NCBI GenBank assembly: GCA_009692265.1
Contig: SHZM01000006.1
Span: 3,080-67,079 of the forward strand
Reading direction: 5' to 3'
Length of the DNA: 64,000 nucleotides
Source: Gammaproteobacteria bacterium
GTDB lineage: Bacteria > Pseudomonadota > Gammaproteobacteria > Ga0077536
Shown here piece by piece: positions 51,110 to 58,153 of the stretch. Position numbers and translations under genes: made by a program. The notes beneath the pieces were generated by a model that searched no databases, was not told the DNA's origin, and saw only the letters and a program-made list of their open reading frames with translations. Numbering within the stretch: the first letter of the stretch is position 1; every line of letters begins with the position of its first letter.

Positions 51110-51478
51110 GGTGTTCTGCTACTTCCGTTTTCATAAAAGGCGCACAGAGTATTTCAGAACTTAGGTCTAGCACACGCCTTCAAGACCAGGCTCAGGGCGC
51201 GACCTGCGTTACCCGCGGGTGGTTGAGCTTAAAACAGGACATAAGCTTCGTGCGAATATCGATTTTTATTTTTATATCTTTGTTTATTATGATTAATATC
51301 TTCGCAAGTTTTAAAATTCAAAAGTGGGAGTGACCCTTCTCATCCCTGCGCGTGGGGTTTAACCGCGCAGAGATGCGTCTGCTTTGTGCTCGACTACCCC
51401 GCGCCAAAAGTTAAGTTGAACCGACCTTCGACATATGCGAACTTAGGCGCACGCTGGTGCTATACAGCATCGAACCCG

Positions 51479-53731
51479 ATGACTAAAAAAATAATCCTTG
51501 CCTCCATTCTGGCACTGTATGCGCTCGCTGCGCAGGCTAGGCCTAAAGAACGTTCACTAGACGAATACTGGTGGCTTTGCCCGATTGATCGGAGCGTCCC
51601 CGTGCGCCCTGAGTTTTCGAGTGAAGGTATCGCGCCCGGGAGCACCGAGGTGCGCTCGGATACCGCCCGCATCGTTGATCAAGAATCCACCTACTTCGCC
51701 GGCGACGCCGAACTCCTTCAGGGGAAGACAGCGATCAAAGCCAATGAAATTACCTACGATCAGCAGACCGAATCAGGTTCCGCGGAAGGGGACACCTCTA
51801 TCTGGAGTGATTCCTTCCTGTGGCGCGGTGAGCGGGCTCTGTTCGACCTCAACTTAAGCCGTTCCCGCCTTGAGCATGGCAGGTACTGGTTGATAGATCG
51901 GCAAGGCCGAGGTGTCGCGGACTTCATCAAGCGAGATGGGAAGGACAATATCACTCGCCTTACGGGAGTGGATTACACAACCTGTCCGCGAAACGCGGAA
52001 AGTTGGAAATTTTCAGCGTCAAAAATCAAACTTGATCACGATTTGGACCGTGGTTACGCGACTAACGCTATTCTGAAAGTTCGCGGCGTTCCCGTTTTCT
52101 ATATTCCGTATATCAATTTCCCGTTAAGCGGGAAACGAAAATCCGGATTCCTGACGCCCTCCATTAGGTCCTCAAATGAATCAGGTCTGGATCTCCAAAT
52201 CCCGTACTATCTCAACCTCGCACCGAACCAGGATGCGACAGTTGCGCCCCGTATTATTGCCGATCGAGGAGAAATGCTGACGGGCGAATATCGCTACATG
52301 GGCCGTACGTTTGGCAGCCAACTTACGTTCGAAGTACTACCGAGTGACGATCTTGCCGGCGGCGAGAACCGGTCGTCAGTCTCCTTTGCGCACCAGCAAA
52401 GGTATGCCGACGATCGCGGCTATCTCAATGCGCTTATCCAGAATGTGTCCGACGCGCAGTATTTTGAGGACTTTGGACATAGCCTAAGCGTTACCAGTCA
52501 GCGCTATCTGGATCGCCGAATCGAAACGACTTATCACGGCCAGCAAATTTCCGTCTACGGGATCATGCAGAGCTATCAGGATATTGATGACTCTGCTGAT
52601 GGTTCGCGTGGACCTTATCGGCGCATCCCGAAAATTCTGGCGCAAACTCGCTTTCCACGACGTCATCTGACGCCGCATTTCTACGCATTGTCTGAATTAA
52701 CCTATTTCGATCGCGATGCCAGTGTTACGGGTGCCCGGCTAGATATTGAACCGACTGTTTCACTCCCCATTATCAAACCATGGGCCGACGTCAATCCTGC
52801 GCTTGGTGTCCGCTACACCGACTATCAATTGACGAACTCACTGAATTTTGACGACCACGAAAACCGCACCGTCCCGGTTTTAAGTATGGATGGACAGTTG
52901 TTTTTTGAACGTCGCTTTGAATTTTGGGACTCTCGCATGTTGCAGACCTTAGAGCCGCGAGCGTTTTACTTATTGATCCCTAAAGTGGGGCAAAGCGAAT
53001 TCCCGGTATTCGATTCCGGCTTATTTGATTTTTCGTTCATTAATTTGTTTAGAAATAACCGCTTTTCCGGCCGTGATCGAATTGGCGACGCGAATCAACT
53101 CGCGCTCGCGGTCACTTCCCGCAATTTCAGTTTGGAATCAGGCCATGAATTGTTTCGCACCAGCCTTGGTCAAATCTATTATTTTCGCGACCGCGAAATT
53201 GCAGTCCCTGGACTAACCATCAGCGATAGCAGCTCCTCGGAATTAATTGGCGAATTTGCGACCTATCTGAGCGACGCCTGGTCCGGGAGGGTAACCATGC
53301 AATGGGATCCTGACTCGAGTCGAACGAATAAATCGGCATTCTCCGTGCGCTACGCGCCGGCGGACGGCACAATCATGAACGTCGCGTACCGGCAACGGAA
53401 TCTTACCCCCGACACCCGGCGCCGCGCGCTTAGCGACATAGAGCAAGCCGATGTGTCGTTTCGGCTCCCGCTAACCGAAAATCTGAGTGTGGTTGGGCGC
53501 TGGGCGTATTCGCTGCAAAATCAGCAGGCGCTAGAAGTGGTCGGTGGTCTTGAGTATGAAAGCTGTTGTTGGGGGATTCGCTTGTTCAGCCGCCGCTTTA
53601 TCCGCAACGTCGAAGGCGAATTCGACAACGCCATTTTTATTCAAGCCGAATTCAAGGGCCTGGGTGGGCTCGGTCGTAGCGCATCGTCCTTCTTGAGGAA
53701 AAGCATCCCTGGTTACGACCCCTTGTTTTGA
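51479..53731 (+). CDS. lptD: LPS-assembly outer-membrane protein LptD
   Basis: The signal peptide is 'MTKKIILASILALYALAAQA'. It has an OstA-like N-terminal domain and a large C-terminal beta-barrel. ~750 aa. Confidence 0.85.
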   Translation: MTKKIILASILALYALAAQARPKERSLDEYWWLCPIDRSVPVRPEFSSEGIAPGSTEVRSDTARIVDQESTYFAGDAELLQGKTAIKANEITYDQQTESGSAEGDTSIWSDSFLWRGERALFDLNLSRSRLEHGRYWLIDRQGRGVADFIKRDGKDNITRLTGVDYTTCPRNAESWKFSASKIKLDHDLDRGYATNAILKVRGVPVFYIPYINFPLSGKRKSGFLTPSIRSSNESGLDLQIPYYLNLAPNQDATVAPRIIADRGEMLTGEYRYMGRTFGSQLTFEVLPSDDLAGGENRSSVSFAHQQRYADDRGYLNALIQNVSDAQYFEDFGHSLSVTSQRYLDRRIETTYHGQQISVYGIMQSYQDIDDSADGSRGPYRRIPKILAQTRFPRRHLTPHFYALSELTYFDRDASVTGARLDIEPTVSLPIIKPWADVNPALGVRYTDYQLTNSLNFDDHENRTVPVLSMDGQLFFERRFEFWDSRMLQTLEPRAFYLLIPKVGQSEFPVFDSGLFDFSFINLFRNNRFSGRDRIGDANQLALAVTSRNFSLESGHELFRTSLGQIYYFRDREIAVPGLTISDSSSSELIGEFATYLSDAWSGRVTMQWDPDSSRTNKSAFSVRYAPADGTIMNVAYRQRNLTPDTRRRALSDIEQADVSFRLPLTENLSVVGRWAYSLQNQQALEVVGGLEYESCCWGIRLFSRRFIRNVEGEFDNAIFIQAEFKGLGGLGRSASSFLRKSIPGYDPLF

Positions 53732-53776: not shown

Positions 53777-54301
53777 CTACGGCACCTGAGTGCAGACTAG
53801 ACCGAGTACCTTTTCAAACGCCTGGTCGGCAAGGGCTCGCATCTCCTCATCGGTCCGATCTTGAATCGGATGCGCCACAAACAAATTATCCGGATGAAAG
53901 CCGACCGCTTCGCCCTGCGTTATCGCCGCCGTCTTGAATACTTCGGAGGCGATAAAACCGCCGGGGATACCACGACTGTCGAGCTCTCTGATGTCATGCA
54001 AACTGCACGACGTACAGGAACCTCAGTCTGCCAATCCTTCGACCACGACATCACATTGACTGGCAATTTCTTGCACCAGACTGATCGGCGCAGGCCGCGT
54101 AAACGTGGGTTTTTTATAGCGCTTCGTACTCACGCCGCGGAGATTAAACAGTTGCTCGATTCGATCGAGAAATACGTTACCGCGCGCTTTAGAGATATCG
54201 AGCAGGCCGACGGTCAAACCGGTCAGCGAAGCGGGCTTTGTCAGCGGCGCACGCTGTATCGGATCGAGTTCGCCCGTAGGGTCCAGCAATATTGCCTTCA
54301 T
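53777..54301 (-). CDS. Candidate UGSC-family selenoprotein (in-frame TGA at 54023-54025)
   Basis: The minus strand reads 'MKAILLD…VVEGLAD-TGA-GSCTSCSLHDIRELD…LGLV'. The TGA sits inside a U-G-S-C-T-S-C (UxxCxxC) motif. A 7-8 bp hairpin begins 11 nt 3' of the TGA. The ATG overlaps the upstream gene's stop (ATGA). If TGA is a true stop, this is instead a 92-codon ORF. Confidence 0.5.
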
Positions 54302-55746
54302 GGTGTAATCTCCTTGGTAACGGGATCCGTGCCTAACGATCCCTTCATCAGCCACCCGGGGATGATAGCGGAAAAAAGTCCGGCCGCACCGCCAGCGCGC
54401 ACCAGACTCAAACCGCCGTGACGAAACTTGGGCATTGTGGGCGGAACATCGGCGACACTAACCAGCGCCTTATCGGTGCCCATGCCGAGATCTTGCGCCG
54501 GAATCTGTAAGTGCTCGTGTAGCGCCGCGACTACCTCAGCCTTACTCCAACCAGCTTCATCAAACACCCGCCCATGCTCAGGACCGATAACAATCACCAC
54601 GTCCGCCGCATTAGCGATGTCGATATGATTAATGCCGCGCAGACTGCCAGCCAGCGAATAAATTAGCCCGGCGGGTGCGCGTGATTTCTGATCAAGGCAA
54701 CCGAGCGGGCCGTCAGCGCTAAACAGCGTCACGCTCGATCGCTCGCGGCTGATGCCATGATCTTCAGCCAGGGTCGTCCACGGCGTGTTTTCGTCTTCAG
54801 CAAAGCAAAACGTGTATTTAGCCGGTGTACCGAAAGTCGATTGATCGGCCTCCAGCGGTTTACCGCCACCAACGTTGCGCACCACCAATTGCAGCGCTCG
54901 GCCAATCGTTGCGTTGGCGCGATTACCCTGTCCCAGGACGTTGCCTTGCCAGTTCATTCCGATGGCTTCCCGCACGGGGCCATTCACGATGATCATCGGC
55001 GCTGAAAACCAGGTCGTTGCCAATAGGCCGTGCAGACAGAACACCGGATCTAACGCGGCCTCGACCGCCGCGAGCACGACCGGTAAGTACTCAGGTTTGC
55101 AGCCCGCCATGACCGCATTAATGGCGACTTTCTCCACGCTACAAGGAGAAAGATTAGGCGGCATCGCGCCGAGAATTTCGTTGGGATCGCGCGTGGTCCC
55201 TGTGAGCATCCGATAAACTCTTTCTTCAGTGGGAGGAACAAGCGGTAGCCCGTCGCTCCAACCGCGTTCGAAACACCATTCAAACTCATCTTCGAGTGGG
55301 GGCACTTCAATCCGTCGCGCCTGCATTGTGCGGGTGCCATAACGCACCGCCAAACGCTCGGCAATCCCAGGTTCAACGGAGACCGATCCACAGCCGGGTC
55401 GGTATGCCGGCAATTCGGGGGCCAGCGCGGCTAGTCCCGTAAGTGCCTCCCACTCCGCTCGCTGCCACCCGACGGCGCGCGCTGCTTCGCGGCCGTCGGT
55501 GATTCGAATCAAGGTCGGTACGGTTTCGATCCCGAGCCGAAAGGAATATTCCAGTCCGCGATCGTCAATGACGTGCGAGTTCGACGAGAAAGTCGGATCG
55601 TCTTGGACGTAGACAGTGACCGATAGCCCACGGCTCTCGATACTTTTCAGGATAGGGTCGACCAATAGGCAGGTGGGGCAGTCGCGCTTGACGACCGCGA
55701 TGAGGCCTTCGGGGAATTGCATTATCAGCGCTCTACTTGGGCTCAC
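54298..55746 (-). CDS. Thioredoxin-fold (CPTC) N-terminal domain protein with large C-terminal domain of unknown function
   Basis: 'VVKRDCPTCLLVDPIL' is a CxxC thioredoxin/glutaredoxin-like motif. 482 aa. It is translationally coupled to the UGSC gene. Confidence 0.6.
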   Translation of the reverse strand: MSPSRALIMQFPEGLIAVVKRDCPTCLLVDPILKSIESRGLSVTVYVQDDPTFSSNSHVIDDRGLEYSFRLGIETVPTLIRITDGREAARAVGWQRAEWEALTGLAALAPELPAYRPGCGSVSVEPGIAERLAVRYGTRTMQARRIEVPPLEDEFEWCFERGWSDGLPLVPPTEERVYRMLTGTTRDPNEILGAMPPNLSPCSVEKVAINAVMAGCKPEYLPVVLAAVEAALDPVFCLHGLLATTWFSAPMIIVNGPVREAIGMNWQGNVLGQGNRANATIGRALQLVVRNVGGGKPLEADQSTFGTPAKYTFCFAEDENTPWTTLAEDHGISRERSSVTLFSADGPLGCLDQKSRAPAGLIYSLAGSLRGINHIDIANAADVVIVIGPEHGRVFDEAGWSKAEVVAALHEHLQIPAQDLGMGTDKALVSVADVPPTMPKFRHGGLSLVRAGGAAGLFSAIIPGWLMKGSLGTDPVTKEITP

Positions 55747-55799: not shown

Positions 55800-56951
55800 T
55801 TAGAAACCCCTCAATTTCGCGTACCGATCGCGGTGAAAGCTCGCATCGCCAAACAGCTGCTGAGCGACTCGCGCGCGCTTGAGGAAAAAGCCGATCTCTT
55901 CCGCATCGGTCATCCCGATCCCGCCATGCAGTTGGACCGCCTCGTTCGAAACCAATTCCAGGGTTTCGCTGGCCTTCGCTTTAGCCAGGCTCGCCAATAA
56001 CGCGAGGTCACTCGTCCGCTCATCGAGTGCGCTTAGTGCTGCGATAACAGCGGACTTCGTTAATTCAATCTCACAAAACATCAACGCCGCGCGATGCTTT
56101 AGCGCCTGGAAAGATCCGATCGGTACCCCGAACTGAGTCCGCAGGTTTAGGTAGGCGCGCGTGCGATCAAAGGCTTCCAGCGCGCTTCCCAACATCTCGG
56201 CGGCGAGACCGCTGCGCGCGCCGTCGAGCACCGGCTCGAGCAGGTTATACCCCGCATTGCACTCGCCCAACACGGCCTGCGCGCTGACTTCGACATTGGA
56301 GAATTGGAGGTTTGCGGCATTCCGAGAATCGACCATCGTCGTCCGTTGACAGGTGATTCCTTCGCACCGCGTATCAACGAGGAATAGCGTTAAGCCGCGC
56401 GGATCGTCGTCCGCGGCACCGGTACGCGCGACGACGATCAACTGATCCGCAACGTGACCGTCGAGCACACAGGTTTTGTTCCCGCTCAGACGATAGCCGG
56501 CGCCGGTGCGCTCGGCGCGCGTCGTAATCCGACACGGCTGATGTCGCGAGCCTTCTTCAAAGGCGAGCGCGACAATTCGCTCGCCAGTCGCAATCGCCGT
56601 CAGCGCATCGTCCTTTTGCGCGGCACTCCCACCGACCGCGATCAGCGGCGCCGCCGTCAGGGCTGTGGAGACTAGCGGCGATGCCGCCAGTTGGCGACCG
56701 GATTCTTCGAAGATCTGCCCAATTCCACGATAGCCGAAAGCGGTACCGCCGTATTCTTCCGGAATCAGGATTCCAGCCCAACCGAGTGCGGCCATCTCTC
56801 GCCAACGTTCACGATCGAATCCGACCGGATCGTTATCGTCCCGTAATTTTCGTAACGTATTGATTGGCATTTTCTGAGTGAAGAAATCGTGTGCTGATTG
56901 TTTCAGCATCGTCTCTTCTTCCGTTAGTACCAGTGCGGCCTGGGCGATCAT
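55800..56951 (-). CDS. Acyl-CoA dehydrogenase family protein
   Basis: ACAD-like C-terminus '…QLHGGIGMTDAEEIGFFLKRA'. The start at 56951 forms an ATGA overlap with the upstream ACAD. Confidence 0.8.
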   Translation of the reverse strand: MIAQAALVLTEEETMLKQSAHDFFTQKMPINTLRKLRDDNDPVGFDRERWREMAALGWAGILIPEEYGGTAFGYRGIGQIFEESGRQLAASPLVSTALTAAPLIAVGGSAAQKDDALTAIATGERIVALAFEEGSRHQPCRITTRAERTGAGYRLSGNKTCVLDGHVADQLIVVARTGAADDDPRGLTLFLVDTRCEGITCQRTTMVDSRNAANLQFSNVEVSAQAVLGECNAGYNLLEPVLDGARSGLAAEMLGSALEAFDRTRAYLNLRTQFGVPIGSFQALKHRAALMFCEIELTKSAVIAALSALDERTSDLALLASLAKAKASETLELVSNEAVQLHGGIGMTDAEEIGFFLKRARVAQQLFGDASFHRDRYAKLRGF

Positions 56952-58153
56952 TCGGGCAGGCCCAAGACATTTTTCGCGATCACGTTCAGCTGGATCTCCG
57001 AAGTACCACCTTCGATCGAATTCCCCTTCGAGCGCAGCCATTGCCGACACACGGTCAGCTCCTCGGGCTCGAACCCTTCGCCTTCCCAACCGAGTGCGTT
57101 CATGCCCACGCATTTAAGGATCAATTCGAACTTTCGCTTGTTCTGTTCGGTGCCGTAATACTTGAACATGGAAGACGTGCCGCCATTCGCCGCACCGACC
57201 GCACTTTCTTGCCCGGCACGACGTAGCGAGAGTTCAAAGGCGTGATCATTCATTACGTGTTGAGCGACCGCATCGCGTAGCACGGGATCCGCGATCCTGC
57301 CGTCTGCATCGCCGAGGTATTTCCTAGCAACAATCTCAACCGATGGCACTGTGCCTCCGATAGCGCGACCAATCCGCGAGATCATCCCGCGTTCGTGCTG
57401 TAACAGCTGTTTCGCGATCTCCCAGCCACCGTTGACCTTGCCAATCAAATTCCGTTTTGGGACTTGGACATTGTCGAAAAACGTTTCGCAAAACACCGAG
57501 CCGCCACTGATCAATTTAATTGGACGGGTCTCGACCCCCGGGCTTTGCATATCAAACAGCAGAAAACTGATACCACCTTGCTTGGTGGTGGTATCTGTGC
57601 GCACGAGACAAAAAATCCAATCGGCGTAATTCGCGTAGGAAGTCCAAATCTTCTGTCCATTGACAAGGTAATGATCACCGCAGTCCTCGGCGCGCGTCTG
57701 TAGACTCGCTAAATCCGAGCCGGCGCCCGGCTCGCTATAACCCTGACACCATCGAATTTCGCCACGTGCGATCGGCGGCAAGTGTTCGGCCTTCTGCGCG
57801 ATGGTGCCGTATTGTAGAAGGACCGGACCGAGCATGCTGATCCCGAAACCAAAGAGCGGCGTGCGACAGTTCAAACTCTGCATTTCTTCCGTGAGGATCA
57901 GCGCCTCCTCGGGTGTAAGTCCACCACCACCATATTCCCTGGGCCATCTCGGCACGGTCCAGCCGCGCTCGACCATACAGTCGAACCACAGCTTGCTATC
58001 AGGCTGCGCAAAACTAGGATTTCGTCCACCCCAGACTCGTTCCTCGTCGGGAAGAGGGGTGCGCATTGAGTGCGGGCAATTCGCCTCCAACCAGGCGCGG
58101 GTGTCTGTTCGGAAGCTATCGAGCATAGTCATCGAGGTTCCTTTGTCGCACAC
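56948..58153 (-). CDS. Acyl-CoA dehydrogenase family protein
   Basis: 'GYSEPGAGSDLASLQTRAE…YLVNGQKIWTSYANYADW' is an ACAD signature. It pairs with the downstream ACAD, like a heteromeric FadE alpha/beta pair. Confidence 0.8.
   Translation of the reverse strand: MCDKGTSMTMLDSFRTDTRAWLEANCPHSMRTPLPDEERVWGGRNPSFAQPDSKLWFDCMVERGWTVPRWPREYGGGGLTPEEALILTEEMQSLNCRTPLFGFGISMLGPVLLQYGTIAQKAEHLPPIARGEIRWCQGYSEPGAGSDLASLQTRAEDCGDHYLVNGQKIWTSYANYADWIFCLVRTDTTTKQGGISFLLFDMQSPGVETRPIKLISGGSVFCETFFDNVQVPKRNLIGKVNGGWEIAKQLLQHERGMISRIGRAIGGTVPSVEIVARKYLGDADGRIADPVLRDAVAQHVMNDHAFELSLRRAGQESAVGAANGGTSSMFKYYGTEQNKRKFELILKCVGMNALGWEGEGFEPEELTVCRQWLRSKGNSIEGGTSEIQLNVIAKNVLGLPE

Follow-up and report, generated by a model that had tools for sequence, protein, structure and literature searches.

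What does a selenoprotein of the UGSC family work with, and in what kind of chemistry? We took up this question for a 64,000-nucleotide (nt) stretch of contig SHZM01000006.1 from a Gammaproteobacteria bacterium, hereafter called the window. On its reverse strand a UGSC gene follows directly on the gene for a larger protein, here called the partner, in which an N-terminal thioredoxin-like module with the motif CPTC precedes a C-terminal domain of about 340 amino acids (aa). An initial annotation of the same DNA had read the pair as a thiol/selenol redox system, in which a CxxC redox partner is coupled to UGSC. The two genes proved to be near-obligate neighbours in many bacterial groups, and UGSC and the domain are sometimes fused in a single protein. 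The proposed pairing thus stood, but homologues place the coupling on the C-terminal domain and not on the CxxC module. Pairing and fusions likewise support reading the two proteins as one system, and conserved motifs suggest that its role lies in redox chemistry. We favour, with a probability of roughly 0.55, a self-contained two-protein selenoenzyme module in which the selenocysteine (Sec) or cysteine of UGSC and the partner domain would form a composite redox site that the thioredoxin module re-reduces.

The partner gene and UGSC form a two-gene cassette

To survey the partner side, one genome per GTDB species was scanned, which gave 80 loci from Pseudomonadota, Actinomycetota, Chloroflexota, Myxococcota, Spirochaetota, Acidobacteriota and other groups, including the cultured Geodermatophilus obscurus DSM 43162. 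A UGSC gene lay directly downstream on the same strand in 79 of them. From the UGSC side, 49 metagenome loci had at least 1150 nt of upstream DNA, and in 48 of these the gene directly upstream encoded a thioredoxin-plus-domain protein, as it did in 22 of a further 23 partial loci. A check of co-occurrence across genomes had been suggested by the initial annotation, and by both counts the adjacency of the two genes is close to universal.

The same annotation had noted that the partner stop codon overlaps the UGSC start codon as ATGA. This was confirmed in the window, and the 4-nt overlap recurred in 36 of the 76 species loci in which the start could be placed; in 18 more the genes were separated by a gap of 0-20 nt. 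The Shine-Dalgarno sequence of UGSC lies within the end of the partner gene (Table 1).

On either side of the two genes the surroundings varied. Among 143 open reading frames (ORFs) flanking the cassettes we counted 107 Pfam families, none of them occurring more than six times. Because the flanking genes are so heterogeneous, the conserved unit, as judged from gene order, is the two-gene cassette alone. The idea of a third gene or a pathway that regularly accompanies the pair was considered and rejected on the same grounds.

The longest ORF of the partner gene (54298..55746, reverse strand) reaches a GTG at 55746 and encodes 482 aa, the length originally reported. Translation probably begins at the ATG at 55722 instead, which gives a protein of 474 aa starting MQFPEGL: a 100%-identical database protein (P0001) has the same length, and the alignment with homologues starts at MQFPEGL. 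The CPTC module therefore stands as described, and the length does not. Residue numbers below refer to the 474-aa protein. P0001 carries the NCBI name 'thioredoxin', and more than 8000 homologues were returned by the initial search. Among the members of this widespread and very common cassette, whose function is uncharacterised, the window copy is an ordinary one.

Comparative evidence for the in-frame TGA of UGSC as a selenocysteine codon

Translated through its in-frame TGA, the downstream gene gives ...VVVEGLAD-U-GSCTSCSLHD..., with the family motif D-U-G-S-C-T-S-C (U93-G-S-C96-T-S-C99). With U written as C for searches with hidden Markov models (HMMs), it passed the cut-offs of both Pfam UGSC (PF24696; 123.3 bits, E = 1.5e-35, cut-off 25) and NCBIfam NF041046 (130.6 bits, cut-off 125). 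The homologous codon was TGA in 80 fetched loci (4 of those being additional copies), TGC in one fetched locus (a Lysobacter metagenome-assembled genome, MAG; L033:2086) and TAG in two Geodermatophilus loci. It was TGY in 80 metagenome loci, which had been chosen by design as Cys forms. Protein conservation runs on past this codon in all homologues, and residue 93, as U or C, is invariant.

A hairpin resembling a selenocysteine insertion sequence (SECIS) begins at the UGA. Its upper stem-loop, which reads GUCGUGCA-GUU-UGCAUGAC in the window and starts there 14 nt past the UGA, follows the pattern GUCGUGCA-GUN-UGCAYGAC. The hairpin is kept in Sec forms and absent from Cys forms, with a mean minimum free energy (MFE) of -15.6 kcal/mol over 80 Sec-form loci versus -9.9 kcal/mol over 81 Cys-form loci. 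No Rfam model matched it. As the TGA is conserved and is followed by a SECIS-like hairpin that Cys forms lack, the in-frame TGA of UGSC is, on this comparative evidence, a real Sec codon. A scan for promoters and terminators gave no signal over shuffled background.

The TAG-type genes belong to G. obscurus DSM 43162 (L057:7665-7667) and a Geodermatophilus MAG (L075). They read ...GCC GAC TAG GGC TCG TGC... around the codon and have the same SECIS-like hairpin 3' of the TAG. No tRNA-Sec was found within the fetched Geodermatophilus loci. Geodermatophilus is reportedly among the genera that decode UAG as selenocysteine, a finding said to go back to Mukai and colleagues in 2016. Cys-form UGSC genes, with TGC or TGT, are common (the Lysobacter MAG and L086-L165). 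They score slightly under the NF041046 cut-off (108-123 versus 125 bits), and annotation pipelines may therefore leave them unnamed.

The C-terminal domain is the element coupled to UGSC

The initial annotation had described some 380 aa of the partner as having no recognisable family, and our searches agreed. Over the domain, neither the window protein (at E<=1) nor its homologues matched a family in Pfam or NCBIfam, and searches of the PDB by sequence and by profile returned no relative. Foldseek gave marginal matches only. Class I (Fe-S) fumarate hydratase and Toblerone-fold cyclic amide hydrolases were aligned over 270-370 columns at E values of about 1e-3 to 1e-2, but with 8-13% identity, a template modelling (TM) score of about 0.2 and a root-mean-square deviation of 12-16 Å. 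The domain also lacks a three-Cys cluster site. Neither fold was accepted for the domain, as these matches give no evidence of a shared fold or function.

An exhaustive search of representatives found 5842 related clusters (E<=1e-3, clusters at 50% identity), and the match coordinates delimit the conserved unit as the C-terminal ~340 aa. It occurs in four architectures: fused to the thioredoxin module (~475 aa), alone (~345 aa), in tandem (~710 aa) and after an N-terminal UGSC (~525-580 aa). The conserved motifs are GWSDGLPxxPPT (D157), NAVMAGC (Cys208, nt 55099..55101), RANATIGRA (N270 and R275) and FCFAE (Cys306, nt 54805..54807, and E309). Across 36 diverse members D157, P160 and P164 (all in GWxDGLPxxPPT), A206, G207, N270, R275 and E309 are invariant, and C208 is conserved in at least 90%. 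Among 244 closer homologues C208 reaches 100% and C306 98%.

Both a domain-only homologue (P0169) and a distant homologue of the CPTS type (P0179) are followed by a Sec-UGSC gene. Because domain-only proteins, as well as fusions that have no thioredoxin module, still pair with UGSC, this comparison of architectures identifies the C-terminal domain as the element coupled to UGSC and the thioredoxin module as an accessory add-on. In the tandem-domain proteins P0185 (713 aa, L167:129-2270), P0151, P0188 and P0207, MAGC and RANATIGRA are retained by one repeat or more.

The thioredoxin-fold module and its linker

The N-terminal module had been called thioredoxin-like from its motif, and its predicted structure bears this out. 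Foldseek against the PDB matched it to thioredoxins, ResA and DsbE with a probability of 1.0 and target-normalised TM scores of 0.52-0.75. CPTC occupies aa 15-18 (23-26 of the 482-aa ORF; nt 55669..55680), just ahead of a helix at residues 16-30. Conservation of this motif had been named as a point to check; C15 and C18 are each conserved in 100% of the 244 close homologues, as is CxTC as a whole. In some distant homologues the second Cys is replaced by Ser or Thr (CPTS/CPTT).

The window protein matched neither the thioredoxin nor the AhpC-TSA model of Pfam. Redoxin and AhpC-TSA were matched only by the modules of distant homologues (6-7 of them for AhpC-TSA), with a best E value of 1e-16. 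The peroxiredoxin context PxxxT/SxxC is also absent, the window reading VVKRDCPTC with no T/S at -3. With the thioredoxin and TlpA-ResA-DsbE proteins the module shares the thioredoxin fold and a CxxC at the start of helix 1; it differs in being fused to a 340-aa domain, in its subthreshold scores and in the replacement of the second Cys in distant homologues. TlpA and ResA carry a signal peptide or membrane anchor. In contrast, the window partner sequence has no signal peptide and no membrane anchor.

The linker motif PGCGS was found in every thioredoxin-fused homologue of our alignment A1, and its Cys111 in 242 of the 244 close homologues (99%). Directly after PGCGS the predicted local distance difference test (pLDDT) score of the model drops to 58-72 over aa 111-140. 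Given this low model confidence, the linker is probably flexible over these residues.

Natural fusions and predicted structures

In natural fusions UGSC is N-terminal and the domain C-terminal (P0200, P0234, P0240, P0263 and about 45 more). One of them bears the NCBI name 'UGSC family (seleno)protein'. About 49 full-length fusions were aligned; shorter forms of 412-468 aa start after the Sec codon. The existence of such fusions suggests that UGSC and the domain act together. Five fusions (P0286, P0287, P0306, P0307 and P0312; 579-581 aa) are about 50 aa longer than the others. Five members of the fusion alignment match NCBIfam NF004842 (PRK06193, 'hypothetical protein'), with E values down to 6.5e-5.

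Structures were predicted with AlphaFold2 (AF2) for the window partner (pLDDT 90.6, predicted TM score (pTM) 0.73) and for the natural fusion P0234, using a 60-sequence alignment (pLDDT 90.3, pTM 0.92). The pTM of the fusion, compared with only 0.73 for the thioredoxin-fused protein, indicates that in the modelled fusion UGSC packs against the domain in a defined manner. In this model the UGSC part forms a sandwich of parallel beta-alpha-beta type, and the helix that follows strand 3 carries the Cys/Sec at its N-terminus. In the PDB the UGSC part matched generic flavodoxin-like folds (such as lumazine synthase and azoreductase) and not thioredoxins. Matches to thioredoxin HMMs within UGSC were rejected as an artefact, the HMM having contained UGSC segments that MAFFT had aligned under thioredoxin columns.

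The 49 full-length Cys-type fusions comprise 35 with a single Cys (CG[TA]S) and 14 with CxxC. The equivalent of Cys306 was kept in 35/35 single-Cys fusions and was lost only in CxxC fusions, in 4 of the 14 (Fisher test, p ~0.005, ignoring kinship; three of the four losses are in close relatives). This complementarity fits a composite site with an interchangeable resolving thiol, in which either Cys96 or Cys306 would be expected to resolve the adduct formed at Sec/Cys93.

Proposed function and alternative explanations

In the selenoenzyme that we propose, UGSC would dock on the partner domain, so that Sec93 and Cys208/Cys306 make up a composite redox-active site. This site would act on a substrate, probably one bearing a carboxylate, with UGSC supplying the Sec nucleophile. 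Turnover would leave Sec in a selenenylsulfide with Cys96 (the UxxC arrangement) or with Cys306. The thioredoxin module, through Cys15/Cys18, would then reduce the Se-S bond, possibly via Cys111 on the flexible PGCGS linker, and would itself be recharged by the thioredoxin reductase of the cell. Through translational coupling the cell would make both subunits in matching amounts. The docking geometry and the redox relay are predictions, built on the observed pairing, fusion, residue conservation and Sec decoding signals.

Several observations weigh against this proposal. Two loci break the pairing: an Acidimicrobiia MAG (L060) has the partner gene and no UGSC within 1.3 kb downstream, and on one metagenome contig (L139) a Cys-form UGSC follows an AraC-type regulator and not the partner. 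The N-terminal module scores under every curated thioredoxin threshold (for TIGR01068, 14 versus 96.8 bits). The complementarity between Cys306 and CxxC comes down to about 2-4 independent losses, without phylogenetic correction. Downstream of the tandem gene of L167, ~1.8 kb of DNA contained no UGSC, with 128 nt seen upstream; the tandem gene is followed by one for a TctC-family tricarboxylate-binding protein. As tandem proteins keep MAGC and RANATIGRA, and as in this one context a TctC gene and no UGSC gene follows, the domain may carry out a Sec-independent chemistry of its own, perhaps on a carboxylate.

Glycine and D-proline reductase (Grd/Prd) appear to offer the closest mechanistic analogy to the cassette, which is not a family assignment. 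Taken literally, the analogy would make it a miniature protein-B-type reductase, like glycine, sarcosine, betaine or D-proline reductase. UGSC would stand for GrdB/PrdB and perform reductive C-N (C-X) cleavage, its Sec attacking a carbon of the substrate and UxxC resolving the adduct. The domain would stand for the substrate-activating GrdE/PrdA, perhaps self-cleaving at the invariant Gly207-Cys208 bond to a pyruvoyl group, and the thioredoxin module would do the work of the separate thioredoxins encoded in grd operons. We consider this unlikely, in spite of a parallel architecture, in which a small Sec subunit is paired with a larger one lacking Sec and a thioredoxin is the likely electron donor. 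UGSC and GrdB do share UxxCxxC (GrdB motif: PMC13188914). The window UGSC itself matched GrdB and GrdF weakly, Sec region against Sec region. At E<1, 76 of 80 UGSC members matched GrdB, 71 GrdF, 60 the general selenoprotein-B model and 58 GrdH (best E value 1.6e-5), and unrelated families were matched in at most 6 members. In the GrdB-type alignments Sec falls on Sec, at about model position 347-350. However, these scores were 12-22 bits against cut-offs from 65 (TIGR01918) to 800, and when the three motif Cys were changed to Ala, all GrdB-family matches were lost in 5/5 test proteins, whereas the UGSC match was kept. Some of the GrdB-model alignments span ~95 residues, yet they too were lost on Cys masking. 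This control places the similarity in the motif, and homology beyond it would be conjecture; UGSC was not retained as a true homologue of GrdB/PrdB, and what remains is the motif in common and the analogy. PDB searches with UGSC also gave no GrdB/PrdB relative. The partner is unrelated in sequence to GrdE/PrdA, no Grd/Prd family (grdA, grdC and grdD-like genes included) is among the 25 commonest neighbour families in the 143 flanking ORFs, and most fusions have the single Cys and not UxxC. Many cassette hosts belong to groups of mainly aerobic soil and water heterotrophs and not of Stickland fermenters, which counts further against such a reductase. A related version, in which the catalytic centre is split between a GrdB-like Sec loop and a novel-fold domain for a Stickland-related reductive cleavage, with Gly207-Cys208 possibly self-processing, is in our judgement just as doubtful; on that reading the cassette would represent a widespread, unrecognised selenoenzyme in bacteria of soil, fresh water and sea.

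A role in general antioxidant defence or thiol repair would turn the thioredoxin/peroxiredoxin-like module and UGSC into a peroxide or disulfide reductase relay, with the domain as a scaffold or regulator. Thiol oxidoreductases make up most of the bacterial selenoproteins in this size range (PMC2398784), the lack of constant metabolic genes around the cassette is what a housekeeping function would lead one to expect, and the peroxiredoxin-type matches of distant modules, some of which have a single Cys, would suit this role. We nevertheless think it improbable: UGSC pairs or fuses with the large domain even where the module is missing, the domain is the most conserved part, its invariant Asp, Cys, Asn, Arg and Glu resemble an enzyme site and not a scaffold, and the window protein falls under the Pfam thresholds without a T/S-x-x-C context. 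We give still less credence to a sulfur or selenium carrier or maturation system, in which UGSC would bring persulfide or selenide to the domain for building or repairing a cofactor or modifying a metabolite. The single Cys common in fusions would suit a carrier cysteine, and the parallel alpha/beta sandwich with flavodoxin-like matches and the SelA or SelB genes beside the cassette in a few genomes are compatible with it, but genes for a cysteine desulfurase, SelD or cofactor biosynthesis are not linked to it with any consistency, Sec in a carrier position would be unusual, and the domain is tied to no known cofactor family. Finally, the adjacency could be chance, or the TGA a true stop giving two unrelated small ORFs; public gene callers do split UGSC, into products of 92 aa and 74-76 aa. 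The comparative data refute this to near certainty, given the adjacency on both sides of the survey, the natural fusions, the alignment of the TGA with Cys in homologues, the conservation across the codon and a hairpin specific to Sec forms.

Relation to earlier work

Knowledge of the UGSC family goes back to about 2005-2008 (Zhang and Gladyshev; NF041046, PF24696), and the window gene is a bona fide member by HMM cut-offs, by U-G-S-C and by its SECIS-like hairpin. In the literature its function is not assigned and it is given a 'likely Trx-like fold', whereas our fusion model points to a flavodoxin-like one. A 2026 review still puts UGSC among selenoproteins with largely uncharacterised functions (PMC13188914). 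A 'UGSC/Unknown_1' fusion was mentioned in passing in 2008, in the Global Ocean Sampling (GOS) selenoproteome paper (PMC2398784); Unknown_1 may be the present domain. The searchable literature yielded no account of the near-obligate operon in which the partner is fused to a thioredoxin module. Hyphomonas neptunium is a cultured UGSC host (PMC1976440).

We place the system among the thiol/selenol oxidoreductase systems, as an uncharacterised variant whose partner domain lacks known relatives. With this partner, UGSC is no longer an orphan redox motif but a defined two-subunit enzyme candidate, open to expression, mutation and screening. The near-obligate and sometimes fused domain brings invariant Cys, Arg, Asp and Glu of its own, many versions having a built-in thioredoxin module. 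A large domain family (>5800 clusters at 50% identity), lacking both a Pfam model and a solved structure, is also revealed.

Feature coordinates and genomic neighbourhood

Table 1. Features of the cassette and its immediate neighbours, in window positions.
Feature	Position	Strand	Basis
Partner gene, probable coding sequence, 474 aa + stop	54298..55722	-	ORF list; 100%-identical database protein P0001 = 474 aa
N-terminal thioredoxin-fold module, ~aa 1-100 of 474	55423..55722	-	Foldseek, AF2
Linker motif P-G-C-G-S, aa 109-113, with Cys111	55384..55398	-	alignment, pLDDT
C-terminal domain, aa ~135-474, family unassigned	54301..55320	-	homologue search, alignments
Shine-Dalgarno AAGGAG of UGSC, within the end of the partner gene, 8 nt 5' of ATG	54310..54315	-	sequence
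ATGA overlap of partner stop TGA (54300..54298) and UGSC ATG (54301..54299)	54298..54301	-	sequence
UGSC-family selenoprotein gene, 174 codons including Sec93 + stop	53777..54301	-	translation; Pfam, NCBIfam HMMs
In-frame TGA, Sec codon, residue 93	54023..54025	-	homologous-codon comparison
SECIS-like hairpin beginning at UGA	53980..54025	-	MFE -18.7 kcal/mol
Upper stem-loop of SECIS-like hairpin	53993..54011	-	
Two acyl-CoA dehydrogenase genes, upstream, 77 nt from partner start	55800..58153	-	
LptD gene, converging from the downstream side	51386..53731	+	

Sec machinery flanks the cassette in a few of the GTDB loci (L005-L084), with SelB domains in 3 and SelA in 2. Since SelB or SelA adjoins the cassette there, UGSC may be a principal selenoprotein of these genomes. 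No Sec-machinery family was among the 25 families listed in a Pfam survey of the window.

The arrangement of acyl-CoA dehydrogenase and LptD genes around the window cassette was repeated in near-identical contigs, and an acyl-CoA dehydrogenase gene was also found in L003/L004. Such neighbours recur only occasionally and are not general.

Genes for nitrogen compounds and oxygenases abound in the window: the Pfam survey, which covered 46 ORFs, found hydantoinase A/B, two N,N-dimethylformamidase-like and two glutamine synthetase-like genes, an ammonium transporter and three luciferase-like monooxygenases, together with a Mutator-family transposase.

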